Shown here: positions 1-17,312 of the stretch, one piece after another
How positions within the stretch are numbered: position 1 is the first letter of the stretch
How the letters are laid out: the number at the start of each line of letters is the position of its first letter
Virus record (IMG/VR): IMGVR_UViG_2531839532_000013
Span: 1 to 17,312 of that record
DNA length: 17,312 bases
From: a virus
Taxonomy: Duplodnaviria; Heunggongvirae; Uroviricota; Caudoviricetes
Reading direction: 5' to 3' (one strand)
Program-made: the position numbers and the translations under genes
The notes under the pieces: model-generated
Seen by the model: the letters and a program-made list of their open reading frames with translations, nothing else
The model's database searches: none
Told to the model about the DNA's origin: nothing

Positions 1-483
1 ATGACGAAGAAAAAAGCACATAAACCTGGTTCAGCGACCATCGCGCTTAACAAGCGCGCCCGTCACGAATACTTTATCGAAGAAGAGTTCGAAGCGGGAC
101 TTGCCCTGCAAGGCTGGGAAGTTAAATCCCTGCGCGCAGGAAAAGCCAATATCAGCGACAGCTACGTCCTTCTGCGTGACGGAGAGGCATTTCTGTTTGG
201 CGCTAACATCACGCCAATGGCCGTGGCCTCCACGCATGTGGTGTGCGATCCTACCCGTACCCGCAAGTTACTTCTCAACCAGCGCGAACTGGACTCATTG
301 TACGGTCGCGTCAATCGAGAAGGCTATACCGTAGTGGCGCTCTCCCTGTACTGGAAAAATGCCTGGTGCAAAGTGAAAATCGGCGTCGCCAAAGGTAAGA
401 AACAGCACGATAAACGTTCAGATATCAAAGAGCGCGAATGGCAGGTGGATAAAGCACGTATCATGAAAAACGCCCACCGTTAA
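1..483 (+). CDS. smpB: SsrA-binding protein SmpB (trans-translation cofactor), complete 160 aa
   Basis: Full ORF starting with ATG at window position 1; the translated protein is recognisably enterobacterial SmpB; it sits immediately upstream of tmRNA, the conserved smpB-ssrA arrangement. Confidence 0.95.
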
Positions 484-671
484 ACCTGCACTCCAATTAT
501 TGACCAGTTCCTCACCGCGCCTCCCTCTCCGGCGGCGCGAATGAACATCTTATTGGCTATCACATCCGACACAAATGTTGCCATCCCATTGCTTAATCGA
601 ATAAAAATCAGGCTACATGGGTGCTAAATCTTTAACGATAACGCCATTGAGGCTGGTCATGGCGCTCATAA

Positions 672-683
672 ATCTGGTATACT
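672..683 (+). promoter_or_regulatory. Candidate ssrA promoter, extended -10 element (TGnTATACT) about 14 nt upstream of the mature tmRNA 5' end
   Basis: Sequence ctggtatact at 674-683 gives TG 675-676 and TATACT 678-683; no good -35 found, consistent with an extended -10 promoter. Position relative to the mature 5' end implies a short precursor leader. Inference only. Confidence 0.35.
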
Positions 684-697
684 TACCTTTACACATT

Positions 698-1060
698 GGG
701 GCTGATTCTGGATTCGACGGGATTTGCGAAACCCAAGGTGCATGCCGAGGGGCGGTTGGCCTCGTAAAAAGCCGCAAAAAATAGTCGCAAACGACGAAAA
801 CTACGCTTTAGCAGCTTAATAACCTGCTTAGAGCCCTCTCTCCCTAGCCTCCGCTCTTAGGACGGGGATCAAGAGAGGTCAAACCCAAAAGAGATCGCGT
901 GGAAGCCCTGCCTGGGGTTGAAGCGTTAAAACTTAATCAGGCTAGTTTGTTAGTGGCGTGTCCGTCCGCAGCTGGCAAGCGAATGTAAAGACTGACTAAG
1001 CATGTAGTACCGAGGATGTAGGAATTTCGGACGCGGGTTCAACTCCCGCCAGCTCCACCA
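698..1060 (+). ncRNA. ssrA: tmRNA (SsrA, 10Sa RNA), 363 nt, ending in CCA
   Basis: Starts GGGGCTGATTCTGGATTCGACGGG (tRNA-like acceptor 5' half), contains the tag-encoding frame, ends GGTTCAACTCCCGCCAGCTCCACCA (T-arm and acceptor 3' half); matches E. coli tmRNA as I recall it. Confidence 0.95.
787..819 (+). other. tmRNA internal tag reading frame (resume codon GCA to TAA) encoding ANDENYALAA
   Basis: GCA AAC GAC GAA AAC TAC GCT TTA GCA GCT TAA read directly at 787-819 inside ssrA. Confidence 0.9.
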
Positions 1061-1070
1061 AATAAATCAA

Positions 1071-1103
1071 GGGGTTACGTGAAAGCGTAGCCCCTTTTTC
1101 TTT
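1071..1103 (+). terminator. Rho-independent terminator of ssrA
   Basis: Stem GGGGTTACG (1071-1079) / CGTAGCCCC (1086-1094) with one G-U pair, loop TGAAAG, followed by TTTTTCTTT (1095-1103). Confidence 0.7.
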
Positions 1104-1203
1104 GGTAGTGGCGGCAAAATGGCGACAGACTTTTGCGTCCATCTTGCCTGTCGCCATCTTGAAATCATGCAAAGAGGTTTCACATGGAAGAACTTCACTT
1201 TGT

Positions 1204-2541
1204 TTACATCAATGCAAATGGTCGTATCTCCAGCACGCGCTGGATGGTTCCCATCGCATCCTTCGTCATCTGCTTTTCAATCACTTCAGGATTGAGTTTC
1301 AGCAGATTCATCCCTTCAAAGAAACTCTTGCTTTGCATGGTGGCAATGGACAATTCACGCACCATCGCGTTTGCTGCACTGGCTGCAACCTCTGGCGCAG
1401 CGCCCAGTGTCAGGAAGGTGGAACCCAGCGCCGCCGCTTTACGATAATCCAGACGGTCAGCCACACCGCCCAGACGTTGCATCACATCAATGATGTCTGC
1501 CCCTTTCGACATGGCGTTATCATCCAGATAGTTCAGCGCATCGCCGAGCTGTTCAATATTGCGGGTAGGTATTTTGTAGAGCTGGGCGATTTTCCCCAGA
1601 CTTTCTGACAGTTCATCCGCTGGCAGCTCAAAGGCTGTGGCCGCCTTTGCTGCCGTACTGGCGAAGGCCAGCAGGTCACGTTTCTGGTCTTCCCAGCTGT
1701 CGTCAGGGTTTGCGACGTTCATGCGCGCACCACCTTCAACCAGTGCAGCGAAATCCACCGCACCGTTTTCCATCGGCAACTGTTCGCTGGCAGCCTTGAT
1801 GGCATCCTGCATTTCATAAAAACGTGCAGTGCGGTTGCCATTATCGTCACGCAGGCCATTGACCTGCTTTGCCACACCTTTCATGGCATCTTCCATGCTG
1901 GTATAGCTTTTTACTGCCACCATCACTGGTGCGCCCATTGCCAGCCCTGCAGCCGTGGTGGTGGCTCCGGCACCTGCAATACGATCACGCACCTCCAGCG
2001 AACGGGCATAACTGGCACGCGCTGCATTCATCCTGCGCTGAGCTTCCCCCAGTCGCTTCAGCCGCGCCTCCTGTTTCGAAAGTTCCTGGTTATAACGTGA
2101 TGTTTCACGGGCTAAACGGGCAGTTGCTCCCGCATCGTCTTTCGCAGAAATTCCCGCCCGGTACAGTTCAGCACGCACAAGCGCCGTCTGCTGCTGCAGC
2201 TTTTTCTGGCGTTCTTCCAGGCGCTGAACAGCCAGCCGTTGACGGCCCAGAGCAACAACCTGACGTTGCGAAGGCGGCCCCATCGCTCCCAGTTCCTGAC
2301 TGAGCAAATTTGCACGCTGGCGGGCATAGTTCAGCCTGTCGCCTAATTTCTGATTTTCTGCCTGCAGCTTTCGGAAGCTGTCCAGACTGCTCCCGGCCTG
2401 ATCAAGCTGCTTTATTGCATCGCGGGATTTTTTGACAGCAGCAGCCAGTTCTCTTGAACTGGCCTGCGCAGATCGAAATGGGCGGGTGAGCTTGTCAACC
2501 GCATTAAGAATGACCTGCAGACGCAGGTTGTTATCACTCAT
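1204..2541 (-). pseudogene. Tail tape-measure protein (P2 gpT-like), N-terminal 445-aa fragment, C-terminally truncated
   Basis: ATG at 2541 overlaps the stop of the upstream -1 frame extension (ATGAGTGA), the P2 E'/T arrangement. N-terminal coiled-coil region rich in Q/R/A/L followed by a tape-measure-core-like segment (KAAALGSTFLTLGAAPEVAASAANAMVRELSIATMQ). The ORF stops at 445 aa, about 140 bp from the ssrA terminator, whereas P2-type tape measures are roughly twice that length. Confidence 0.65.
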
Positions 2542-2713
2542 CGTTGGCCCCGCTTCTCTGAATCGCTTTATACCGCCATTCCAGCACTTCGGTCAGCGGC
2601 ATAACGTCAGTAACGGATGGCGGCCAGTGAAAAATGGTGGCGATATCTGCCACCAGATCGTCAACCGTCAGGCTGTCGGAAAACCGGCAAGCACCGACTT
2701 CTTCAACAAAAAA
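2534..2713 (-). CDS. gpE' -1 frame extension (E+E' frameshift product), open from the slippery site to a TGA overlapping the tape-measure ATG
   Basis: Hand translation of the -1 frame from the heptamer (minus strand, 2713 to 2707) gives 57 sense codons (VEEVGACRFSDSLTVDDLVADIATIFHWPPSVTDVMPLTEVLEWRYKAIQRSGANDE) ending at TGA 2536-2534, which overlaps the T-fragment ATG at 2541-2539. Confidence 0.55.
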   Translation of the reverse strand, partial: FFVEEVGACRFSDSLTVDDLVADIATIFHWPPSVTDVMPLTEVLEWRYKAIQRSGANDE

Positions 2714-2892
2714 GTGACAACCTCAACCGACATGGCAGTGAGATCTGCCGGGTCCATCTCTGCAATTTCCTGTGCAGTCAGTGCCGGACTGGAGATGCGG
2801 GGGATCACGGTCATCATCGCGTTTACATCCATACCGCCTGTTGCACGCTGGCGGTAGTCCTGGCGGCTGTCTTCATGGCTCAGCTTGTCCAC
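2668..2892 (-). CDS. Tail assembly chaperone gpE-like ORF (possibly 5'-truncated); zero-frame product of the E/E' frameshift pair
   Basis: Small ORF immediately upstream of the tape-measure start on the same strand; contains slippery heptamer T TTT TTG twelve codons before its stop. The ORF-track start at 2892 is GTG; first ATG is at 2832. Assignment is by position and frameshift architecture, not by sequence identity. Confidence 0.5.
   Translation of the reverse strand: MDKLSHEDSRQDYRQRATGGMDVNAMMTVIPRISSPALTAQEIAEMDPADLTAMSVEVVTFLLKKSVLAGFPTA
2707..2713 (-). other. Programmed -1 ribosomal frameshift slippery heptamer TTTTTTG (X XXY YYZ form)
   Basis: Plus-strand caaaaaa at 2707-2713 reads T TTT TTG on the minus strand, in frame as ACT TTT TTG within the gpE-like ORF; the same heptamer is used by the P2 E/E' tail chaperone genes as I recall. 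Confidence 0.55.
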
Positions 2893-3617
2893 CTCAGCTG
2901 TGCCTGCAGGGCTGTCTCCAGCTCAGACAGGCGTTCTTCCTGTTCAGACAGGGATTTTTCGGTGCGCGCACTCAGGTTTTGCTGCTCAGTGGCAACCAGC
3001 TCCACGGCCTTATGCACATCAGAGAACCGGGCATCATCGGACTGCTCTTTTTTGGTGAACAGCGCCGTGACACGGGCAAACAGGGATGGTTTTTCGTCCT
3101 GGACTTCTTCCAGTTCGATCACCGTTTCCTCTGCAGCGGTAAAAAGATTGGCGGGATTCTGCTTGCGGTTTGCCAGCGGGTTATGGGCTGCACTGGCGCT
3201 GAATGTCAGCATTTCCGTACCCAGACTGGCGGGATCATCAGTGGCGGCCAGGCCAACCAGGTAGGCTTTGCCCGTATCAGCGAACTTCGGGCTGACTTCC
3301 ATAGAGGTGAATAATTTCTGGCCTTTTTTCACCAGTTCCACCAAGGACTCCGTTGGCTCAACGTCGGCATACAGCGCCATCTTGCCTGCCAGCGGACCTT
3401 CCGTGATTTCTTCAGCAAACAGCGCCGTCACCTTGCCGTAGCGGTTAAAGGTGCTGTCCGGAAGATAAGACTTGATGTGCTCAAGGTTAATCAGCGCGGT
3501 ATACACCGCCGGGTTGTAGCTGGCTGCCATCTGTTCCAGCCATTCACGCTGGATTTCACGTCCGTCGGTAGTGGCACCTTCCACCCCGATGCGAAAACGC
3601 TTTGCTTTCACTGTCAT
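2880..3617 (-). CDS. O: Capsid scaffolding protein gpO (P2 family), 245 aa; C-terminus probably altered by a deletion junction
   Basis: ATG at 3617 with GGAG upstream; protein shows the gpO pattern (RIGVEGATTDGREI..., INLEHIKSYLPD..., KAYLVGLAATDDPASLGTEMLTF, SDDARFSDVHKAVE). It is shorter than I recall for P2 gpO and ends in LRWTS directly overlapping the gpE-like ORF. Confidence 0.8.
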   Translation of the reverse strand: MTVKAKRFRIGVEGATTDGREIQREWLEQMAASYNPAVYTALINLEHIKSYLPDSTFNRYGKVTALFAEEITEGPLAGKMALYADVEPTESLVELVKKGQKLFTSMEVSPKFADTGKAYLVGLAATDDPASLGTEMLTFSASAAHNPLANRKQNPANLFTAAEETVIELEEVQDEKPSLFARVTALFTKKEQSDDARFSDVHKAVELVATEQQNLSARTEKSLSEQEERLSELETALQAQLRWTS

Positions 3618-3695
3618 GAGCCGTGCTCCGTTAGAAAAAACTTACTGGAGCCTTATGGTTGCGGTGATGGGGGCAGTGAAACAATGCGCGGTATT

Positions 3696-3713
3696 TGTAC
3701 CGACAACCACACA
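3696..3713. promoter_or_regulatory. TGT-N12-ACA dyad, the Ogr/B-type late-activator binding site of P2/186 late promoters, in the divergent O/P intergenic region
   Basis: TGT at 3696-3698, 12-nt spacer accgacaaccac, ACA at 3711-3713; centre lies about 87 nt upstream of the O start codon and 55 nt upstream of the P start codon. Confidence 0.45.
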
Positions 3714-3759
3714 AACCGCAGGCGGGGAAAGCCTTCATTCAAGGCTGTAGGTTTGTGCC

Positions 3760-5526
3760 ATGAACACCACACTGACACCCGCAGATCTCGATCCCCGTCG
3801 GCAGGCCATGCTGCTGTACTTTCAGGGATACCGCGTAGCCCGCATTGCTGAAATGCTGGGCGAGAAAGTTGCAACCGTTCACAGCTGGAAAAAACGCGAC
3901 AAGTGGGGTGACTATGGGCCGCTGGATCAGATGCAGCTCACCACCGCCGCACGCTACTGCCAGCTCATTATGAAGGAGCACAAAGAAGGGAAAGATTTCA
4001 AAGAGATTGACCTGCTGGCGCGCCAGTCGGAGCGCCACGCGCGGATCGGCAAGTTTAACAATGGCGGCAACGAAGCCGACTTAAACCCTAACGTCGCCAA
4101 CCGCAACAAAGGCCCGCGCCGTCAGCCGGAAAAGAATGTTTTCACCGATGAGCAGATTGAGAAGCTGGAAGAAATCTTCCATTCCTCCATGTTCAACTAC
4201 CAGCGCCACTGGTGGGAAGCCGGAAAAGCCAACCGCATCCGCAACCTGCTGAAGTCACGCCAGATCGGCGCGACCTTTTACTTTGCCCGTGAAGCCCTGA
4301 TTGACGCCCTGCTTACCGGACGTAACCAGATTTTCCTTTCCGCCAGCAAGGCACAGGCCCACGTCTTTAAGCAGTACATCATCGACTTCGCCAAAGAAGT
4401 GGAGGTGGAGTTGAAAGGCGATCCGATGGTGCTTCCTAACGGGGCCACGCTTTACTTCCTCGGCACCAATGCCCGCACTGCCCAGAGTTATCACGGCAAC
4501 CTGTATCTGGATGAATATTTCTGGATACCGAAATTCCAGGAGCTGCGCAAAGTGGCTTCCGGTATGGCTATTCACAAAAAATGGCGACAAACCTATTTTT
4601 CCACGCCATCCAGCCTGACTCACAGTGCTTATCCGTTCTGGTCCGGTGCGCTGTTCAATCGTGGGCGCAACAAAGCCGATAAGGTGGACATCGACCTGTC
4701 CCACAGCAATCTGGCCCCCGGCCTGCTGTGCGCAGACGGGCAGTACCGCCAGATAGTCACTGTGGAAGATGCGGTGCGCGGCGGCTGTAACCTGTTCGAC
4801 CTCGACCAGTTGCGCATGGAGTACAGCCCGGACGAATACCAGAACCTGCTGATGTGCGAGTTTGTGGACGATCTCGCGTCCGTGTTTCCGCTCAGCGAGC
4901 TGCAGGCGTGCATGGTGGACAGTTGGGAAGTCTGGACCGACTTTCATGCTCTGGCCCTGCGCCCGTTTGGCTGGCGCGAAGTGTGGATCGGTTATGACCC
5001 GGCAAAAGGTACGCAGAACGGCGACAGCGCCGGATGCGTGGTGGTGGCACCGCCAGCCGTGCCGGGCGGTAAGTTTCGCATTCTTGAGCGTCACCAGTGG
5101 CGCGGGATGGACTTCCGCGCCCAGGCTGACGCAATCAAAAAACTGACCGAGCAGTACAACGTGACCTACATCGGCATCGACTCAACCGGCGTTGGTCACG
5201 GGGTTTACGAGAACGTGAAAGCGTTCTTTCCTGCCGTCCGGGAGTTTGTCTACAACCCCAACGTTAAAAACGCCCTGGTACTCAAGGCCTACGACATTAT
5301 CAGCCACCGCCGTCTGGAGTTTGACGCCGGACATACCGACATTGCGCAGTCATTTATGGCAATCCGTCGCGCCACCACCGCCAGTGGCAACCGCCCGACC
5401 TATGAAGCCAGCCGCAGCGAAGAAGCCAGCCACGCCGATCTGGCATGGGCAACAATGCACGCACTGTTTAACGAACCGCTGCAGGGCGAATCCGCCAATA
5501 CCAGCAATATTGTGGAGATTTTTTGA
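3760..5526 (+). CDS. P: Terminase large (ATPase/nuclease) subunit gpP, 588 aa
   Basis: ATG at 3760; strong resemblance to P2 gpP throughout (QAMLLYFQGYRVARIAEMLGEKVATVHSWKKRDKW, KSRQIGATFYFAREALIDALLTGRNQIFLSASKAQAHVFKQYII, WIGYDPAKG...DSAGCVVVAPP); stop TGA overlaps the Q start. Confidence 0.92.
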   Translation: MNTTLTPADLDPRRQAMLLYFQGYRVARIAEMLGEKVATVHSWKKRDKWGDYGPLDQMQLTTAARYCQLIMKEHKEGKDFKEIDLLARQSERHARIGKFNNGGNEADLNPNVANRNKGPRRQPEKNVFTDEQIEKLEEIFHSSMFNYQRHWWEAGKANRIRNLLKSRQIGATFYFAREALIDALLTGRNQIFLSASKAQAHVFKQYIIDFAKEVEVELKGDPMVLPNGATLYFLGTNARTAQSYHGNLYLDEYFWIPKFQELRKVASGMAIHKKWRQTYFSTPSSLTHSAYPFWSGALFNRGRNKADKVDIDLSHSNLAPGLLCADGQYRQIVTVEDAVRGGCNLFDLDQLRMEYSPDEYQNLLMCEFVDDLASVFPLSELQACMVDSWEVWTDFHALALRPFGWREVWIGYDPAKGTQNGDSAGCVVVAPPAVPGGKFRILERHQWRGMDFRAQADAIKKLTEQYNVTYIGIDSTGVGHGVYENVKAFFPAVREFVYNPNVKNALVLKAYDIISHRRLEFDAGHTDIAQSFMAIRRATTASGNRPTYEASRSEEASHADLAWATMHALFNEPLQGESANTSNIVEIF

Positions 5527-6566
5527 TGGGAAAGAGTAAGAAGAACCGAGCTGCGGCGACGAAACAGATCCAGCTTAAAAGTCAAACTACAGCCGAAGCA
5601 TTCAGCTTCGGCGATCCCGTTCCTGTTCTGGACCGCCGTGAACTGCTGGACTATGTGGAATGCGTACAGATGGACCGTTGGTATGAGCCGCCCGTCAGCT
5701 TTGACGGACTGGCGCGCACCTTCCGCGCCGCCGTGCATCACAGTTCCCCGATTGCAGTAAAGTGCAACATTCTGACCAGTACCTATATCCCTCATCCGCT
5801 GCTCAGCCAGCAGGCTTTTTCGCGTTTTGTGCAGGACTATCTGGTATTTGGTAACGCCTACCTGGAGAAACGCACGAACCGATTCGGTGAAGTTATCGCC
5901 CTTGAGCCTGCGCTGGCAAAATACACCCGACGCGGGTTAGACCTGGATACCTACTGGTTTGTGCAATACGGTATGACAACCCAGCCGTATCAGTTCACGA
6001 AAGGCAGCATTTTTCATCTAATGGAACCGGATATTAATCAGGAGATCTACGGCCTGCCCGGTTATCTTTCTGCAATTCCGTCTGCCCTGCTCAACGAGTC
6101 CGCCACGCTGTTCCGTCGAAAGTATTACATTAACGGCAGTCATGCAGGCTTCATCATGTACATGACCGATGCCGCGCAAAACCAGGAGGATGTGAACAAC
6201 CTCCGCAATGCGATGAAAAGCGCCAAAGGACCAGGTAACTTCCGCAATCTGTTTATGTACTCGCCTAACGGCAAAAAGGACGGGCTTCAGATCATCCCGT
6301 TGTCAGAAGTCGCGGCGAAGGATGAGTTTCTGAATATCAAGAACGTGAGCCGGGACGACATGATGGCAGCACACCGAGTGCCGCCGCAGATGATGGGGAT
6401 TATGCCTAATAATGTAGGGGGGTTTGGGGATGTGGAGAAAGCCAGCCGGGTATTTGTTCGGAATGAACTGATGCCTTTACAAAAACGCATTGCCGAAATT
6501 AATGAATGGTTAGATGAAGAGGTAGTCAAATTTGAATATTATGGCTTAGAAAATAATCAGTCATAA
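5526..6566 (+). CDS. Q: Portal vertex protein gpQ
   Basis: ATG at 5526 overlaps the P stop (TTGATGG); the ORF-track start at 5523 is a TTG. Co-oriented with and coupled to gpP and divergent from gpO, as in P2. Confidence 0.85.
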   Translation: MGKSKKNRAAATKQIQLKSQTTAEAFSFGDPVPVLDRRELLDYVECVQMDRWYEPPVSFDGLARTFRAAVHHSSPIAVKCNILTSTYIPHPLLSQQAFSRFVQDYLVFGNAYLEKRTNRFGEVIALEPALAKYTRRGLDLDTYWFVQYGMTTQPYQFTKGSIFHLMEPDINQEIYGLPGYLSAIPSALLNESATLFRRKYYINGSHAGFIMYMTDAAQNQEDVNNLRNAMKSAKGPGNFRNLFMYSPNGKKDGLQIIPLSEVAAKDEFLNIKNVSRDDMMAAHRVPPQMMGIMPNNVGGFGDVEKASRVFVRNELMPLQKRIAEINEWLDEEVVKFEYYGLENNQS

Positions 6567-6572
6567 AAAAGA

Positions 6573-6605
6573 AGTGAACAAGTTGAAATTATCAGCTTGT
6601 TCACT
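6573..6605. terminator. Bidirectional rho-independent terminator between convergent Q and the Q-cos cargo genes
   Basis: Perfect 10-bp stem AGTGAACAAG (6573-6582) / CTTGTTCACT (6596-6605) with a 13-nt loop; A6 run upstream on the plus strand (a U-run for the minus strand) and a weak T-rich tract downstream. Confidence 0.65.
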
Positions 6606-6621
6606 ATTATCTGTATTATCT

Positions 6622-6891
6622 CTACTGCATCCGTCCGGGTAAATCGCTTTCATTGCGTAAACGCCAAGCTAACTGTTCACGATCCCAAACTATATCGTCT
6701 TTGCTAGCCTTTCTAAAATTTGCTAGCACAGTACTGCTTATAGCGTAATTACCATTCTCATTAGTTTTGATGAACTCGTCCCCAAAGTCATTGATTAGAA
6801 ATTCAACAACCTCGGACTGATACAACACACCATTAGAACGAGTGGTATTAACCATCCAGTCAACTATTTTTATCAGAGAATCATTCATCAT
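6622..6891 (-). CDS. Hypothetical protein, about 88 aa, unrecognised; second gene of an overlapping two-gene cargo unit
   Basis: ORF-track start at 6912 is TTG; tandem ATG codons at 6891 and 6888 preceded by GAGAG. The start overlaps the stop of the upstream gene by 11 nt (minus-strand ATGATGAATGA). Visibly AT-rich relative to the phage core. Confidence 0.55.
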   Translation of the reverse strand: MMNDSLIKIVDWMVNTTRSNGVLYQSEVVEFLINDFGDEFIKTNENGNYAISSTVLANFRKASKDDIVWDREQLAWRLRNESDLPGRMQ

Positions 6892-7090
6892 CACTCTCAG
6901 CTTTTGGAACAAATAAAACTAGAGTATCTTCATGAAAAACTCCGCGCTGGTTCTTAGCACCAATAAACCACGTACAAACTGCCATTGTAGCCGATTGGTA
7001 GTGATCAATTACCATGATTGGACCATGTCCTGTTGCATGTTTTACTTTCTGGCCCGGTGTATATTTTGCCACTCTCACGTCTCCTTTCAT
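6881..7090 (-). CDS. Small DUF2158 / YodC-like protein, 69 aa
   Basis: ATG at 7090; an AAGGAG motif inside the first codons precedes in-frame GTG codons, so the true start may be a few codons later. Sequence pattern (GDVRV...GHGPIMVIDH...CTWF...GVFHEDTLVLF) fits the small YodC/DUF2158 family as I recall it. Confidence 0.6.
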   Translation of the reverse strand: MKGDVRVAKYTPGQKVKHATGHGPIMVIDHYQSATMAVCTWFIGAKNQRGVFHEDTLVLFVPKAESDDE

Positions 7091-7151
7091 GTGTAAGTTA
7101 TCAATTTCAGAATATATCTACATTAATTGCAAGTAAACATGTTTGCGCGCG

Positions 7152-7170
7152 CTCGTATCCCCGCCACGCC
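7152..7170. other. Candidate cos (cohesive end) site of the P2/186 family
   Basis: CTCGTATCCCCGCCACGCC at 7152-7170 matches the reverse complement of the 186-type 19-nt cohesive end as I remember it at about 15 of 19 positions, including the CCCCGCCACGCC core; it lies between Q and the A side, where cos sits in P2. Confidence 0.45.
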
Positions 7171-7215
7171 TGCCCGCTTTATGTAGTGGTTTTCATGCAG
7201 GAGCATGATCTACGC

Positions 7216-7239
7216 AAAAGCCCGCCAGTTCTGGCGGGC
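7216..7239 (-). terminator. Terminator-like GC hairpin with U-run on the minus strand, just beside the cos candidate
   Basis: Stem GCCCGCCA (7220-7227) / TGGCGGGC (7232-7239), loop GTTC; plus-strand AAAA at 7216-7219 gives a U-run after the hairpin on the minus strand. Confidence 0.4.
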
Positions 7240-7512
7240 CTTAGCAAAAACGATCCTCAAACGATCATGCAATCTCATGCAGCATAGACATGCACAGACG
7301 AGTAAAGCGAATCGGACTTTACGCAAGGTGAACTCCTCAGCGGGCATAATCAGTATGTCGGAAGATCTCTAAAAATAAATAATTCGGTTAACAGGTATGC
7401 TTACAAAAGCATATATTTGATTAAAAATCATGTAAGGGGGAGGATCTCAAACTGAATCGCCACGGGTTTTACAAATTTCGATAGTCTCTCTAACGTTTCG
7501 GCTGAGGTCAAA

Positions 7513-7938
7513 ATGAAAAGCTTTTACGTATTAATTTTAATTCTGGTTGCAAGCTTTGTTAGCGTCCCAGTTCAGGCGGTAACAGCTAAAAACTATGAGA
7601 AAGGAACTAAAGCTCAACAGAAATCAATATCTTACCTTTCATGTGCATTCTATGGCAGTAGCACACAATTAGATCCTAGCTACACGGAGCAAGTACCTAC
7701 AGCCGATATCAAGATATTACAGAAAGCAGCTTACCACGCTTACAACGATGCGCTCTCATACTTTGGCTATGAGGAACCAGATCACGAACAACGCATAATT
7801 GATTATGCTGAATTTGTGGCGTCGCAAGAAGCTGTGTTATGGGATAAGCCGGGAATGAATGGAAAGCAGGTAACACTAATTGCTCGTTCTCTCTACAATG
7901 AGAGTAACTGTAACTTGTTACTGGACTCAATTAAGTAG
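7513..7938 (+). CDS. Hypothetical secreted (signal-peptide) protein, 141 aa; AT-rich cargo gene
   Basis: ATG at 7513 with GAGG 8 nt upstream; N-terminus MKSFYVLILILVASFVSVPVQA has basic-hydrophobic-AxA signal-peptide form; no family recognised; visibly AT-rich block. Confidence 0.65.
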   Translation: MKSFYVLILILVASFVSVPVQAVTAKNYEKGTKAQQKSISYLSCAFYGSSTQLDPSYTEQVPTADIKILQKAAYHAYNDALSYFGYEEPDHEQRIIDYAEFVASQEAVLWDKPGMNGKQVTLIARSLYNESNCNLLLDSIK

Positions 7939-8097
7939 GAAAAAGATGGTATTTTGCCCGTAGTTTCAACCTTAATCTCCGAACCTGTCGCAGAACGGGC
8001 GTTCACTCATCAAATAAACGCCACACCTAACGCCTCACTGTACTCGTTGTTCAACCTTGCTGACGCCAGAACCAAGTTCAGACGCCAGCAACTTTTC

Positions 8098-8331
8098 TTA
8101 ATGCAGCCAGCTGTCGTCTTCCCACACCTTCTGCATAATCTTCATCACTTGTTTTCTTTCTTCGTCCAGTTGCAGTCCGGTCAGTTCCACACCGTTAGAG
8201 CTACCTTTGCGGATGCGAATTACCGTTTTGGGATACAGGGGGCGCAGATTGCGGTAAAGCTCGGATTCAAGGGCGTCCAGGGGAGACTGGCTAATCTTCT
8301 GCTCTTTATCGATCATTATTTCAATGCGCAT
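8098..8331 (-). CDS. DinI-family protein (SOS-associated RecA modulator family), 77 aa from the internal ATG
   Basis: From ATG 8331 (GAGGGG upstream) the protein MRIEIMIDKEQKISQSPLDALESELYRNL...KQVMKIMQKVWEDDSWLH aligns by eye along its whole length with E. coli DinI. The longer ORF-track start at 8403 overlaps the upstream gene and is probably not used. Confidence 0.8.
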   Translation of the reverse strand: MRIEIMIDKEQKISQSPLDALESELYRNLRPLYPKTVIRIRKGSSNGVELTGLQLDEERKQVMKIMQKVWEDDSWLH

Positions 8332-8341
8332 AAAGGTCCCC

Positions 8342-8530
8342 TCAGCTGATGACATCCATTGAGCGGTTGTATTCGTGGGTTCTGATTTTTGCCATGAGTT
8401 CATCTGTCAGTTCAGAAACCCACTGCAAAGCCAGCCCCTTCTCTTCATCACTACACTCACTAGCCGCTACAAGCTTAAGAAAAAAATCAATGCGCTGGAG
8501 CTTCAAAGACTCCAAAAAATAGTCCTGCAT
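8342..8530 (-). CDS. Small hypothetical protein, 62 aa; possible Tum-like antirepressor N-terminal module
   Basis: ATG at 8530 preceded by AGGAGG; lies directly upstream of the DinI-like gene and downstream of a LexA box. The longer track ORF from 8632 has no comparable ribosome-binding site. Function is inferred from context only. Confidence 0.5.
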   Translation of the reverse strand: MQDYFLESLKLQRIDFFLKLVAASECSDEEKGLALQWVSELTDELMAKIRTHEYNRSMDVIS

Positions 8531-8571
8531 CTTTCCTCCTATGACACCACAAGCAATACTGTATACATAAC

Positions 8572-8591
8572 CACTGTTTATATTTACAGTA
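8572..8591. promoter_or_regulatory. LexA operator (SOS box), CTGT-N8-ACAG, upstream of the small-protein/DinI-like gene pair
   Basis: CACTGTTTATATTTACAGTA at 8572-8591 with CTGT 8574-8577 and ACAG 8586-8589; an additional half-site-like TACTGTATACATA at 8557-8569; located 42-61 nt upstream of the ATG at 8530. Confidence 0.7.
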
Positions 8592-8683
8592 TATAATAAT
8601 CTTACTGATGTAAAACGTTTTTTTACGTTCATTAGCCTGATATGCCTGGTATTATTAAGAGCACGAATTGTTAACCCGCGTAA

Positions 8684-11098
8684 TTAATACAGGTTTCGCC
8701 ACTTATCATCTTCCTGCAAACGCTGGTTCCGATAGAAGATACGCAGGCCTGCTCCTGACGGAATACTGCCGCCGCGAAGGAGTAAATCGACCTCTTTCTC
8801 GCTGCCATTAAATCCTCTGGACTTCAGTTCATAGACTAGCTGCTGTCGCTGATGGTCTGTAATTCGCTGTTTGTAGTCTTTACGCCGTTTCGGTTTCACC
8901 AGGCGTAACCTTGCAGCCAGTTCCCGGCGCTCTTTTTTGCTCATACTGTGCAGGTAATCGTGCAACTCCTTGTCATCCATGCGGGTAATGTCCGTCCTGG
9001 TATCCCCATCAGCTGATTTGTCTTTCCCTTGTTGGTTCAAATTTTCAGCAAGGGGACAGTTATTGCCACGAGTCCAAGGGGCGCAAGCGCCCTGGTCGGC
9101 TGCCGCCTCCTGAACGTCAACGGCTTTACGAACCATTTTCCACTTCACTGCATGAGTGCAGATCTTGCCCTCTGCAATGGGTGACCAGATGCCATAAATA
9201 CGAATACCGTGATCGCCATAGGCGGTCGGCTCTTCGTTGATTTCATAAGCGGTTCTGATGAGGTGATATTTACGGGGAACCAGTACGCCGCCCTGCTTCA
9301 TGATGTAGGTAGCAAAACAACCAGCATCAGCAGCAGCCAGAATGGCATCAAGACGCGGGTTATCCAGTACCGGCGCACCTGCTTTTTTGTCACCCTGTTG
9401 CCTTGCCACCTGACCAGCCAGCAAGCGAAGTTCACGGTAAGCCTGACGTCCCGGAATACCAAAGAAGCGGAATTGCTGTACACGATGCAGAGACGCCCAG
9501 GCATTAACGTATTCAGCGTTATCACGCAAGGATTTACCCGTTTCCTTACTGATCTCGCCAGCCAGACCACGCCCGTCAATGTTCTTACTGATGTATTTCG
9601 CGATGTAGCTTGTCGGCGTTCCTTTGCGCGGGTTTATCAGCTCAGACTTAAAGCGTGGCTCCGTGTTATTGCCCAGCTCCTCGCGGTCTTCACGGATGGC
9701 AAACTTACGCAGTAATGCAGTGATGGCGCGGCGGTCTTTTTTGCGCATGAAACACAATAGGTGCCAGTGAACGGTGCCGTCATGATGAGGCTCAGCCACC
9801 CGCACGCCATACCAGCGCAACCCGGCTTTATGCATAGCCTTACGAAATGCAGCAAACATGCCGACCAGATAATCGCTGCTTTGTCTTACCGTCGCATTTG
9901 TCCAGGTCGGGTTGGGCCTGCCGTTATTTAGCGTGGAATGGAAACGTGACGGACAGGTGATGGTGTAGAAAACGGCGCAGTCACCGCGCATTTCCGCGAT
10001 AAGCTCCAGACCTTTAACACAGGCCATCATCTCATTGCGGCGATGCGCAGGGTTGCTGCTGCTGGCGTTTACCACATCCTCCATGTCCAGTGTGTCGCCG
10101 TCTTCGTTCACCAGTTCATGAGAACGGAAAAACTCCAGTGACTTGCGGCGCTGCTCACGTTTATGCATCACGGCTTCATAGCTAACATAGGGAGATGCTT
10201 TTTTGCTGACCAGGCAGACAGCACGCAACTGCTCTTCCCGCCATTCGCAACGCATCTTCCATAATTTCCGATACCACCAGTCGGCGCACAACATACGCGC
10301 CAGCGAACCCGGAATGAGTTCATAGGGCACGGGTTTGCGGCGGTTTCTTTTCCGACGAAGTTGCTCAAACGCAGGCGGTATGACATCCAGTCGCAGGGTT
10401 TCCGCTGCTACCTTTTCCCATGTCTTGCGGATTTCTTCTGGCTTAACATCATCGGTGGCATACAAATCGCCACAAGCGGCATCAAGGCACATGCTCATAT
10501 GCGCAGCTACCAGGGTGGACAGGCGTTTTACCTGATCCTGACTCATTTCAGGCAGAATCAGCAGGCCGTCCAGCCCTTCATGGCTTGCCATAAAGCGAAA
10601 AGAAGTGGATAGCTGACTGTCGCGTACATGCTCCAGCCGTTCCAGACATGGCTTAATCGTCTTACGCAAATAGCGGGAATAAGCCTTTGGCCTGCCCAGT
10701 CTGCTGAAGTATTCAATACGTTGCATCAGCGGCTTGCTGATATGGGAAGGCTGGGCGTTAACGTCCGCCAGAATGACCATGTCTGGATTAAAACGCTGCT
10801 GCTCATGCGCCAGCTTTGCCCGGCTAATAAGCTTATCCTGCTCCATTTCGCGTTGGACAGGATCACGGGATTCATTAAAGAAATAACGCTCCCAGACCTG
10901 ATCACTCAGTGCCTCGCGGCGCAGCTGTTCCTGCTCGTTATCGGTAGCGTACAGAGTGATCAGGTTTGAAAGCGCAGAAACCGGCGCAACTTCCGCCGGG
11001 TCCAGATAAGGGTTAATAGCCTTTTTCGGGCTGTTCCATGAGAATGCTGCGGCGACCTCGTTAACGCCGCTGCAGTTGTTCATATCGGCATGACTCAT
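8684..11098 (-). CDS. A: Replication initiation endonuclease gpA (rolling-circle initiator), 804 aa
   Basis: ATG at 11098 overlaps the Dam stop (minus-strand ATGA); HUH-type motif within [10 protein letters not shown]; size and position at the end of the early operon match P2 gpA / 186 A. Confidence 0.85.
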
Positions 11099-12476: not shown

Positions 12477-12818
12477 TTAATTCGGCATGGTTAGCCGTCT
12501 GGGAAATAAGCTCACCACTGCACGAAAATGATTCATTGCTTTAATCAACTCCCGCTTTTCGTCAGTGGTCAGCTCATTAATGCTGATGCTATGACGTTCA
12601 GCTGGAATTTTTGCCATAAAGAATATGGCAGCCAGTGCCCGTTTATTTTGTTCGCTATTAATATCCCGTGGATCACGCATATCTTTAATAAACCGTTCAA
12701 GCTCTGACTCAATATTAAGACCAAAAACTTTCGCCCTTAACTCCGCAATATGATTAAGTCCATTCAGGCGTTCACCGGGGCTTAATGGAACAGTCGCCGC
12801 AGCGCCTTCAATAGCCAT
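12477..12818 (-). CDS. Hypothetical early-operon protein, 113 aa
   Basis: ATG at 12818 preceded by GGGGGA; same strand and operon as the flanking early genes. Confidence 0.55.
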   Translation of the reverse strand: MAIEGAAATVPLSPGERLNGLNHIAELRAKVFGLNIESELERFIKDMRDPRDINSEQNKRALAAIFFMAKIPAERHSISINELTTDEKRELIKAMNHFRAVVSLFPRRLTMPN

Positions 12819-13893: not shown

Positions 13894-14526
13894 ATGATAC
13901 AGGTAAAGGCTGGAGAGAATACAGGGGGAAGAGAGGCTATCCATAGACTAATGGCAGCCTATGATTTCAAGTCCAGACAGCAACTTTGCGATCACTTAGG
14001 CGCATCAAAAAGCACCATGGCAAACAGATACTTAAGAGATAGTTTTCCTGCAGAGTGGGTGATTCAGTGCGCCTTGGAAACAGGAGTTTCTTTACTGTGG
14101 CTAACCACCGGACAGGGAGAGCCAGGTCCAAACATTAAACCTAAAAAAAATATCAATTCCGTGAACTCCAGCAAGGTTGTACCTCTTTCTGAACTAGTAT
14201 CTCCTGAAATTGACAAGGCGACTCTCAACGGTGGTTTATTGGTCGATGCTGGAAAAGCAATCATTGATAGCAGCATACTCCCCTCAGACTCAAGCAACCT
14301 ACTGCTGGTGACTACTTCTGGTGATTCTTATTTAATAGATCGCAACCAAACACCACCAGTAAATGGTATGTGGTTAGTCGATATCGACGGGATAAAAAGC
14401 ATTGTTAAATTGACTCGGCTCCCGGGAAACAAATTAGTAGTGCATCAGGATGATTCATCGTTTGAGTGCGGTCTGGATGACATTGAGGTAGTAGGCCGCG
14501 CACTGAAAATCATTAAGAGCCTTTGA
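13894..14526 (+). CDS. CI-type immunity repressor (phage 186 CI-like), 210 aa
   Basis: ATG at 13894 with AGGA upstream; N-terminal HTH region (...STMANRYLRDSFPAEWVIQCALETGVSLLWLTTGQGEP) resembles 186 CI; immediately upstream of and co-oriented with int. Confidence 0.75.
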   Translation: MIQVKAGENTGGREAIHRLMAAYDFKSRQQLCDHLGASKSTMANRYLRDSFPAEWVIQCALETGVSLLWLTTGQGEPGPNIKPKKNINSVNSSKVVPLSELVSPEIDKATLNGGLLVDAGKAIIDSSILPSDSSNLLLVTTSGDSYLIDRNQTPPVNGMWLVDIDGIKSIVKLTRLPGNKLVVHQDDSSFECGLDDIEVVGRALKIIKSL

Positions 14527-14527
14527 T

Positions 14528-15541
14528 ATGACCATCAGAAAACAGCCGAACGGAAAATGGTTGTGTGAGTGCTATCCCAATGGACGCAATGGCAAGCGCG
14601 TGCGTAAGCAATTTGCTACGAAAGGCGAAGCCATTGCGTTTGAAAGCTTCACAATGGAAGAAGTGAATAAAAAACCGTGGTTGGGTGAAAAGGATGATCG
14701 GCGACGCCTATCAGAATTAATTGAGCTTTGGTATTCCCTGTATGGTCAAACACTCGCAGACCCCAAGCGCCTCATGGCGAAACTTAGAATTATCTGTAAT
14801 GGTCTAGGCGATCCCATCGCCTCAGAACTGACAGCTGGTGACTTTACAAAATACCGCGAAGCACGGTTAAAAGGTGAAATACGAAATGAAGATGGCACAC
14901 TTATGTCGCCCGTAAAGCCCCGTACGGTAAACCTTGAACAGCGCAATCTATCATCTGTGTTCGGTACATTAAAAAAACTAGGACACTGGTCAGCACCAAA
15001 CCCGCTGGCAGGACTTCCGACCTTCAAAATTGCCGAAGGTGAGCTGGCTTTTCTTTCCACGGACGAAATCAAGCGCCTGTTGGCGGCATGTGCTGAATCT
15101 CAAAACCCTAGCTTACTAATGATTGCAAAAATATGCCTAGCTACTGGCGCACGGTGGAGTGAAGCCGAAAATCTGCAGGGCCACCAAATATCGAAATACC
15201 GAATTACTTATACAAAAACAAAAGGCAAGAAAAACAGAACAGTACCCATATCACAGGAGCTGTATGACGAACTCCCAAAGAACAGAGGGAAGTTATTCTC
15301 ACCATGTAGAAAAGCCTTTGAACGAGCAGTAAAACGGGCAGGTATAGATCTACCGGATGGCCAATGCACCCACGTGCTGCGACATACGTTTGCTAGCCAC
15401 TTTATGATGAATGGCGGGAACATACTTGTGCTAAGGGATATTTTGGGACATTCGGATATCAAGATGACCATGGTTTACTCACATTTCTCACCAGATCATC
15501 TTGAAGATGCCGTTACTAAGAACCCATTAAACTTGATATAA
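14528..15541 (+). CDS. int: Tyrosine integrase, P2/186 type, 337 aa
   Basis: ATG at 14528, 1 nt after the repressor stop; strong resemblance to P2 Int including GRNGKR near the N-terminus, LATGARWSEA, HVLRHTFASHFMMNGG and the catalytic-tyrosine region MVYSHF. Confidence 0.92.
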   Translation: MTIRKQPNGKWLCECYPNGRNGKRVRKQFATKGEAIAFESFTMEEVNKKPWLGEKDDRRRLSELIELWYSLYGQTLADPKRLMAKLRIICNGLGDPIASELTAGDFTKYREARLKGEIRNEDGTLMSPVKPRTVNLEQRNLSSVFGTLKKLGHWSAPNPLAGLPTFKIAEGELAFLSTDEIKRLLAACAESQNPSLLMIAKICLATGARWSEAENLQGHQISKYRITYTKTKGKKNRTVPISQELYDELPKNRGKLFSPCRKAFERAVKRAGIDLPDGQCTHVLRHTFASHFMMNGGNILVLRDILGHSDIKMTMVYSHFSPDHLEDAVTKNPLNLI

Positions 15542-15554
15542 AACAGCCAAAATT

Positions 15555-17312
15555 CTATTTCATCAAGTAATCCAATTCATCCTTCATAGGTATAACTTGC
15601 TCATAAAGTCTATGGTAGGATTTTCCAATTGCACCCCTAAATTGAATAAGTTTAGGGGAAAAGCTACCGATATTAATAATATGTTCTTGCGCTATACCAG
15701 GATATGGATCGATAAAAATAATCTCTGTCATACCTAACTGATAAGCTTTTTTAGCACAAAGTTCACAAGGGCTAGCTGTAGTATATAGTTTCCCTCCATT
15801 AATACCGACCCCACCATATTTGGCCAATTGCAAAAAAGCATTCTCCTCTGCGTGCAATGCACGGGTATGCACTTGATTCCCTTTCTTTTCATCATCAAGG
15901 CTGTTGTGAATATCTTTAAAACAATATGGCAAATTAAGTCCTTTAAAAACAGTAGAACTTGAATCACTCGCCCTTATTTTTATTAAATTTTCTTTAACTT
16001 TACTCCTAAATTTTGTATTACTTCGTTCGTACAGGCTATATGTTCCCTCATCAAAATCATGCAATAACCCATCAAATGACCTCATAGAACAAGGAACTTG
16101 ACCTTTTGCTACATCGTTCCAACCAACTGACTTGATAGAGTTATCATTATCTGTCACAACCGCCCCTACTTGCCTAGATATACATCCAGAATTTAGTTTT
16201 ACAGTATATGCAACTTGCATAACCCTTTCCATGGCGGTAGGAGATATTAATCCAGGGTGTTGCATTAATGATACATACCACGCAATTTGTGCTTTGAGAA
16301 AATTATTATTATCAAATTCTTTTTTAGGGTTAAAAAAATGTATATCTGAAATTTCAATGCATTTTTTTACATTAGGATTAGTAAGATGATTATACTCGCC
16401 ATCTCCTTTACCAGATTCTTCATCATTAATTTTTTTTATCTGTTCCTCTGAGAACTTATGTAATTTCTTTAAATATCTGGTTCGATGTTCATCTGGTGCA
16501 TTTATAGAAACCAGATGGAATGCAGCATATCTATCTTTGAAGAATTTAGCTTCATACGGGTTACGTATCGCATCAATGACTATATACGCTTTATTATTCT
16601 TTACTTTTCTAATTATTTTAATAACACGATTAATTGTTTCAGGTAAATGAAAAACAGCCTTTGGAATAAAGTCTTGATTTTCATAATCTACATCAACCTT
16701 CCCTATTCTTCTAATTGACTTTCCTGCTGACTGATATAGCTCAATATATAAACCTGGCTCTAGTTCATTTAATTCCCTTTTAAAATCCCGTGTAAATTTT
16801 CGAGTAAGAGTTAATATCCTAATAAAGGTATCTTTCCCCCTGCCTTTAAAGTCAATCTCATCATCATGATTAAGAAGATTTTTTATCACCTTAAGATATT
16901 TTATCTTCAACAAACTTTTAGCGAACACACCATTAACAACCAGTTTCTTGGCTGCCTTAAAGGAAATCGAATTTTCTTTTTTATCGGGGATTTTACTTGC
17001 AGAAAACTGAATGAATTTAGCTAAGGCCGATGGAGATAAAAGGAGCAAATATATTGAAATGAGATCACTGACCTTTATCGAATAGAAGTTCTTCCAATGA
17101 GTCTCTGCAAAATTTTTTACTATTTCATAACGCCGCAAATCCAATCCTTTATAATACTCAGCCAAGACGTTACTATCTGGAAAAGATATTTTTTTTTGTT
17201 CTAAAATATTTGCTGCAGTAGTACATCCTGAGCCAGTTCTCCCAGTTAAACCAATAAGAATAAATTGACTATTTTCTAAAAAAAGCTCACTAATAAATTT
17301 GTGTTCTCTCAT
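15555..17312 (-). CDS. P-loop nucleotide-kinase-like / dCMP-deaminase fusion protein, 585 aa (AvcD / defensive dCTP-deaminase-like)
   Basis: ATG at 17312-17310, the last three bases of the window, so the true start could lie upstream. N-terminal P-loop GLTGRTGSGCTT (residues 21-32); C-terminal zinc-deaminase motif HAE (487-489) ... PCELC (515-519) followed by the dCMP-deaminase-like tail AKKAYQLGMTEIIF. Strongly AT-rich; convergent with int, stop codons 13 nt apart. Confidence 0.7.
   Translation of the reverse strand: MREHKFISELFLENSQFILIGLTGRTGSGCTTAANILEQKKISFPDSNVLAEYYKGLDLRRYEIVKNFAETHWKNFYSIKVSDLISIYLLLLSPSALAKFIQFSASKIPDKKENSISFKAAKKLVVNGVFAKSLLKIKYLKVIKNLLNHDDEIDFKGRGKDTFIRILTLTRKFTRDFKRELNELEPGLYIELYQSAGKSIRRIGKVDVDYENQDFIPKAVFHLPETINRVIKIIRKVKNNKAYIVIDAIRNPYEAKFFKDRYAAFHLVSINAPDEHRTRYLKKLHKFSEEQIKKINDEESGKGDGEYNHLTNPNVKKCIEISDIHFFNPKKEFDNNNFLKAQIAWYVSLMQHPGLISPTAMERVMQVAYTVKLNSGCISRQVGAVVTDNDNSIKSVGWNDVAKGQVPCSMRSFDGLLHDFDEGTYSLYERSNTKFRSKVKENLIKIRASDSSSTVFKGLNLPYCFKDIHNSLDDEKKGNQVHTRALHAEENAFLQLAKYGGVGINGGKLYTTASPCELCAKKAYQLGMTEIIFIDPYPGIAQEHIINIGSFSPKLIQFRGAIGKSYHRLYEQVIPMKDELDYLMK

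Follow-up and report, generated by a model that had tools for sequence, protein, structure and literature searches.

We identified an intact 585-codon gene of the anti-phage dCTP deaminase family (Tal et al. 2022; AvcD, Hsueh et al. 2022) that is carried as lysogenic-conversion cargo by a 186/P2-like prophage integrated at ssrA in E. coli. We put the probability of this reading at roughly 90%, the activity itself being inferred from homologues. The sequence and fold of the protein, its family membership, the conservation of its essential residues and its placement inside the prophage are directly established. The gene already bears this name in RefSeq, and the characterisation of its family dates from 2022; it is therefore a bona fide and correctly annotated member of a known family, and it adds nothing new on the biology of the enzyme. 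The case also illustrates that sequence reading alone is able to spot a nucleotide-depletion defence gene.

The gene lies at the end of the 17,312-nucleotide stretch of DNA analysed here (the window), with its ATG formed by the final three bases. A sequence look-up returned WP_001737417.1 as an exact match to the encoded protein, for which we assigned the following features:

15555..17312, minus strand: gene of the anti-phage dCTP deaminase family, 585 aa plus stop (ORF; NF041025; PADLOC dCTPase; sequence look-up)
16263..17312, minus strand: N-terminal nucleotide-kinase-like domain (P-loop NMP kinase fold), residues ~1-350
17217..17252, minus strand: non-canonical P-loop GLTGRTGSGCTT, residues 21-32, invariant in 37 homologues
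15558..16247, minus strand: C-terminal zinc-dependent dCMP/cytidine-deaminase-fold domain, residues ~356-585
16089..16184, minus strand: Cys377-Cys408 segment, including GWND at 397-400 (alignment with the AW1.7 enzyme, offset 7 residues)
15846..15854, minus strand: HAE catalytic motif, residues 487-489, with His487 as zinc ligand and Glu489 as proton shuttle (alignment with HAE of T4 Cd; invariant)
15756..15770, minus strand: PCELC zinc-binding motif, residues 515-519, with Cys516 and Cys519 (alignment with PCpdC of T4 Cd; invariant)

An earlier note, made from the letters alone, had read a P-loop, an HAE triplet, a PCxxC signature and a characteristic tail in this ORF, and all four are found at the positions it gave, the tail AKKAYQLGMTEIIF occupying residues 520-533 directly after PCELC. 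The HAE, PCELC and P-loop motifs are unchanged in all 37 homologues compared, as are G29, C30, C377 and C408. In the P-loop, which reads GRTGSGCT, Cys30 stands at the position where a lysine is expected. Because Cys30 replaces the Walker-A lysine, the kinase-like domain is most probably a nucleotide-binding module and not a phosphotransferase.

The deaminase domain contains an insertion of ~70 residues that has low confidence in the predicted model. The T4 dCMP deaminase Cd has a second, structural zinc site in addition to the catalytic one. In our alignment, Cys377 and Cys408 pair with Cys19 and Cys49 of the T4 enzyme and not with the catalytic PCxxC; for this reason the anti-phage dCTP deaminase family may keep the second structural zinc site too.

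Both features that the earlier note had led us to expect were found, namely a dCMP_cyt_deam domain in the C-terminal third and a P-loop NMP-kinase fold at the N-terminus. Pfam dCMP_cyt_deam_1 matches residues 361-533 (E = 4.8e-15), and the Pfam matches at the N-terminus are sub-threshold kinase families only (CoaE, AAA_18, Cytidylate_kin2). A further match covers the full length: the NCBIfam equivalog NF041025, "anti-phage dCTP deaminase", scores 421.2 bits over model positions 1-437 of 437, above its curated trusted cutoff of 400 bits. The PADLOC dCTPase model PDLC02373 also matches (3e-146). Together with 76% identity to the experimentally characterised enzyme of E. coli AW1.7, these scores bear out the proposed AvcD / dCTP-deaminase type.

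The protein thus combines a full-length model match, an HAE and PCxxC deaminase, a kinase-like N-terminus in a protein of more than 350 aa, the residues essential in AW1.7 and a location on a mobile element, which are among the defining features of the family. It likewise has the two domains, the non-lysine Walker A and the catalytic Glu and CxxC that characterise the AvcD type. The family comprises more than 4384 proteins at E <= 1e-10, for which "anti-phage dCTP deaminase" is the widespread name, and RefSeq gives this name to the copy in E. coli strain 300709, one residue different from ours. A sequence search of the PDB found single-domain dCMP deaminases only and no solved full-length structure of the family.

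Some database homologues are named 'deoxycytidylate deaminase' or 'ComE operon protein 2', as would be expected if the gene encoded a host housekeeping dCMP deaminase of the ComEB or Dcd type. However, the housekeeping ComEB model TIGR02571, for which the cutoff is 219.45 bits, reaches just 41.6 and matches only residues 483-537, and the two-domain protein does not resemble the single domain of ~150 aa of such enzymes. Homologues detectable at the DNA level are present in 44 of the 5426 complete E. coli genomes (<1%), and the gene itself is AT-rich, with 33% GC, and lies inside a prophage. The distribution and the model scores refute a housekeeping enzyme, to which we assign practically no probability; the housekeeping reading that the earlier note had set against its own thus fails.

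A second explanation concerns the deaminase domain, whose closest counterparts by both sequence and fold are the dCMP deaminases of phages and cells, T4 Cd among them; PHROGs dCMP-deaminase families also match the C-terminal part of the protein. The gene could accordingly be a phage nucleotide-metabolism enzyme, a T4 Cd-like dCMP deaminase that raises the dTTP supply during lytic growth of the prophage. Yet this likeness is confined to the C-terminal domain whereas over its full length the protein matches the defence family, and a diverged GWND (397-400) stands where dCMP deaminases have their allosteric motif G[YW]NG. The genomic position of the gene argues in the same direction: it is transcribed against int, outside the phage operons, and its slot is swappable, being filled by unrelated genes in sister prophages. 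In addition, none of the 50,697 isolated phage genome records searched contains a close homologue. We consider a phage metabolic enzyme highly improbable and retain the anti-phage dCTP deaminase as the reading of this gene.

The window corresponds to the E. coli ssrA locus and is >99.9% identical to strain 300709, of which it is a near-identical relative and not the strain itself: 3 SNPs over 12.5 kb (8283, 8339 and 17192) set the two apart, as does a single indel of 16 bp within 1-5569. The SNP at 17192 alters the deaminase, which is WP_001737417.1 in the window and WP_001206704.1 in 300709. With smpB at window positions 1-483, the landmarks of the prophage are as follows:

698..1060, plus strand: ssrA (tmRNA), the integration target
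1016..1061, plus strand: attL core, the 3' end of ssrA, 46 bp, perfectly repeated as attR
13894..14526, plus strand: phage CI repressor (cI-int operon)
14528..15541, plus strand: 186/P2-type tyrosine integrase (int), convergent with the deaminase gene
15541..17312, no strand, extending past the window: AT-rich swappable cargo cassette, 33% GC (comparison with the HNH sister prophage)

The attR repeat is located just past the end of the window, 222 bp upstream of the deaminase ATG, as read in strain 300709. Because the gene stands between int and this repeat, it is inside the prophage, which agrees with the location at a prophage edge claimed by the earlier note. The contrast in composition that the note described, of an AT-rich gene against a GC-richer prophage, holds as well, since the remaining window has 50% GC.

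The stop codons of the convergent int and deaminase genes are separated by 13 bp (window 15541-15555), with no terminator-like hairpin between them, so that the cI-int and deaminase transcripts may run antisense into each other.

The 186/P2-like prophage still has its terminase, portal, replication, cI and int genes and the cos-adjacent hotspot. As seen at window 1061-3650, it is a deletion derivative, in which truncated tape-measure (~1228-2541) and GPO scaffold (~2833-3633) genes abut; it lacks the ogr, D, U, sheath, tube, baseplate, fibre, tail, lysis and capsid genes that the intact copy of strain EC5502 (L016) contains. The defence cassette has outlasted the ability of the prophage to make virions. 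The EC5502 prophage, 34 kb long and apparently complete, has the one-residue variant WP_001206704.1 in this slot, and in Citrobacter braakii a homologue with 83% identity is arranged in the same way, with the same att core.

Past attR we observed a second integrase-bearing island (L001 12736-21513), forming a tandem array at ssrA. Its products, among them a serine recombinase, two ParB-family proteins, a NACHT-domain protein and a RelA/SpoT fragment, are suggestive of further defence cargo.

Window 6566-8684 is the published cos-adjacent P2 hotspot (portal-gpA), with 37-44% GC, and contains four genes:

6622-6891, minus strand: DUF6953 protein
6881-7072, minus strand: 63-aa DUF2158-like protein
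7513-7938, plus strand: 141-aa protein without family
8098-8331, minus strand: DinI

PADLOC models matched none of the proteins encoded in this interval.

The boundaries of the deaminase cassette can be drawn from the HNH-carrying sister prophage, with which homology ends at L001 10741 and restarts at 12619. The left junction is the 3' end of int (~15541) and the right junction falls ~105 bp past the end of the window (window-equivalent ~17417), for a cassette length of ~1.9 kb. The slot between int and attR is filled by an HNH endonuclease in the sister prophage and by a 510-aa or a 418-aa protein in other strains (compared loci: L002 7742-8805, L014 5267-7100 and L015 5243-6600). Among 224 genomes with a related cI-int module, the slot cargo is the deaminase in 7, HNH in 4, the 418-aa protein in 3 and the 510-aa protein in 1. 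Neither the 510-aa nor the 418-aa protein has a Pfam or PADLOC match. Outside this slot, E. coli homologues of the deaminase are found in a tRNA-Phe island (AW1.7), an ICE (LF82) and a dusC-inserted element.

Published P2 hotspots of E. coli are the portal-gpA (cos-adjacent) and the Z/fun loci (Rousset et al. 2022; Vassallo et al. 2022), and the int-attR slot is therefore a different one, distinct in place from both. It shares with them small size, high turnover and a position flanked by conserved phage anchors, and the published hotspots carry anti-phage genes. This leads us to a tentative proposal, which we would hold at somewhat less than even odds: in 186/P2-like prophages that integrate at ssrA, the junction between int and attR may represent an undescribed third P2-like defence hotspot, in which case the 510-aa and 418-aa cargos would be new anti-phage genes, and the control of the deaminase cassette may also not involve a canonical AvcI sRNA. 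The slot could be mined for new defence genes.

The question of control arises from the Vibrio systems studied, in which a labile sRNA, AvcI, encoded just 5' of the gene and in the same orientation, holds AvcD in check (Hsueh et al. 2022/2023); AvcI sequences are reported as not conserved. We read the corresponding region, beyond the window, from strain 300709. The 222 bp from the ATG to the attR core consist of ~105 bp specific to the cassette and ~117 bp common to the HNH-carrying phage. The cassette-specific part includes the best promoter-like site, TTGCAA-17-AATACT; its end is 49 nt away from the ATG, and the C. braakii allele has kept it.

Searching the upstream region against Rfam at a permissive threshold matched only the tmRNA-derived att fragment. 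RNA folding of the 222 nt indicated no unusual stability (z = -1.24, compared to z = -0.40 for the upstream region of AW1.7), and BLAST between the upstream regions of the alleles found the shared att arm only. Given the reported lack of conservation among AvcI sequences, the missing upstream similarity proves nothing about AvcI.

Two candidates in this region were rejected. A 51-codon upstream ORF on the same strand, which recalls how difV was first noticed, shows no conservation in either the C. braakii allele or the HNH-carrying phage. Likewise, TGCCGCC repeats were considered as part of an antitoxin RNA, but the same element is found beside attR in the HNH-carrying sister prophage. These direct TGCCGC(C/T) repeats (GCTCTGCCGCCAAGTTGCCGCCA) are located in the interval that separates the cassette from the att core (L001 12619-12735, window-equivalent ~17418-17534). 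As they are conserved across prophages with different cargo, they are probably Int arm-type sites of attP.

If there is no canonical AvcI, possible means of control would include the leader of the gene's own mRNA and an RNA overlapping the attP arm. An allele this compact provides a simple way to ask whether all dCTP deaminases require an RNA inhibitor of the AvcI type.

The upstream region also bears on a third explanation, by which the protein is the toxin of a type III toxin-antitoxin system that stabilises the prophage or island by addiction, with phage defence incidental. AvcID is formally a type III TA system (Hsueh et al.), the gene has been kept in a prophage stripped of most structural genes, and homologues are found on several kinds of mobile element (islands, ICE and prophages). 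Nevertheless, the Rfam, folding and BLAST analyses found no antitoxin RNA upstream. AvcD overexpression is moreover reported as non-killing, and a protein that does not kill when overexpressed makes a poor addiction toxin, whereas for the AW1.7 homologue there is direct experimental evidence of defence (10.1101/2021.04.26.441389). We therefore regard addiction as an unlikely function, with a slim chance of being correct, and favour phage defence by dCTP deamination.

By analogy with its homologues, we propose that such defence would proceed in five steps. First, the lysogen would express the deaminase from its own promoter in the ~105-bp cassette-specific leader. Second, the protein would be kept inactive in uninfected cells. 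Third, the shutdown of host transcription by a lytic phage would lift the inhibition, in the Vibrio systems studied via the decay of labile AvcI. Fourth, the zinc deaminase domain (H487, E489, C516 and C519) would turn dCTP and dCMP into dUTP and dUMP, a reaction for which, as in homologues, the kinase-like N-terminal domain would also be needed. Fifth, the loss of dCTP would stall phage DNA replication, and death of the cell would not be necessary.

Among the closest known systems is the 576-aa dCTP deaminase of E. coli AW1.7. [quoted passage not shown] The 76% identity with the window protein extends over the full length, and both proteins consist of a kinase-like and a deaminase domain. Their P-loops are identical (GRTGSGC), so that G29 and C30 carry the same numbers in both, and C370 and C401 of AW1.7 correspond to C377 and C408 of the window protein, which has an 8-residue insertion around residues 107-114. 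Each gene is a single-gene cassette on a mobile element adjoining an integrase. The AW1.7 gene is found in a tRNA-Phe island with a P4-type integrase and has an upstream intergenic region of 524 bp, whereas the window gene has just 222 bp upstream of it and is housed between int and attR in a 186-like prophage at ssrA.

The allele of ETEC H10407, an experimentally tested locus, is too diverged to be detected by a DNA-level search with the window gene.

Kinship with V. cholerae AvcD (VC0175), as we read it, rests on motif spacing and on literature that treats both as one family. AvcD is a 532-aa protein with the same order of domains, P-loop-kinase-like and then dCMP deaminase. The Glu-27-Cys-3-Cys spacing is common to the window protein (E489, C516 and C519, the residues that the earlier note had singled out for mutation) and to AvcD (E384, C411 and C414). 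At the position of the Walker-A lysine AvcD has Ser52 and the window protein Cys30, and the diverged allosteric motif reads GCND in the former and GWND in the latter. In AvcD, S52K (at the Walker-A position), E384A and C411A/C414A each abolish activity (Hsueh et al., preprint). The V. cholerae gene is preceded by a sRNA antitoxin of 174-222 nt, 5' of the gene within an intergenic region of 504 nt, and the window gene leaves much less upstream room for an antitoxin RNA.

Finally, the window protein can be set against the virus-encoded dCMP or dCMP-dCTP deaminases bi-DCD of chlorovirus PBCV-1 and Cd of T4. Unlike the window protein, these are single-domain enzymes of ~140-190 aa without the kinase-like domain; they are allosterically regulated and supply the virus's own nucleotides rather than serving host defence.
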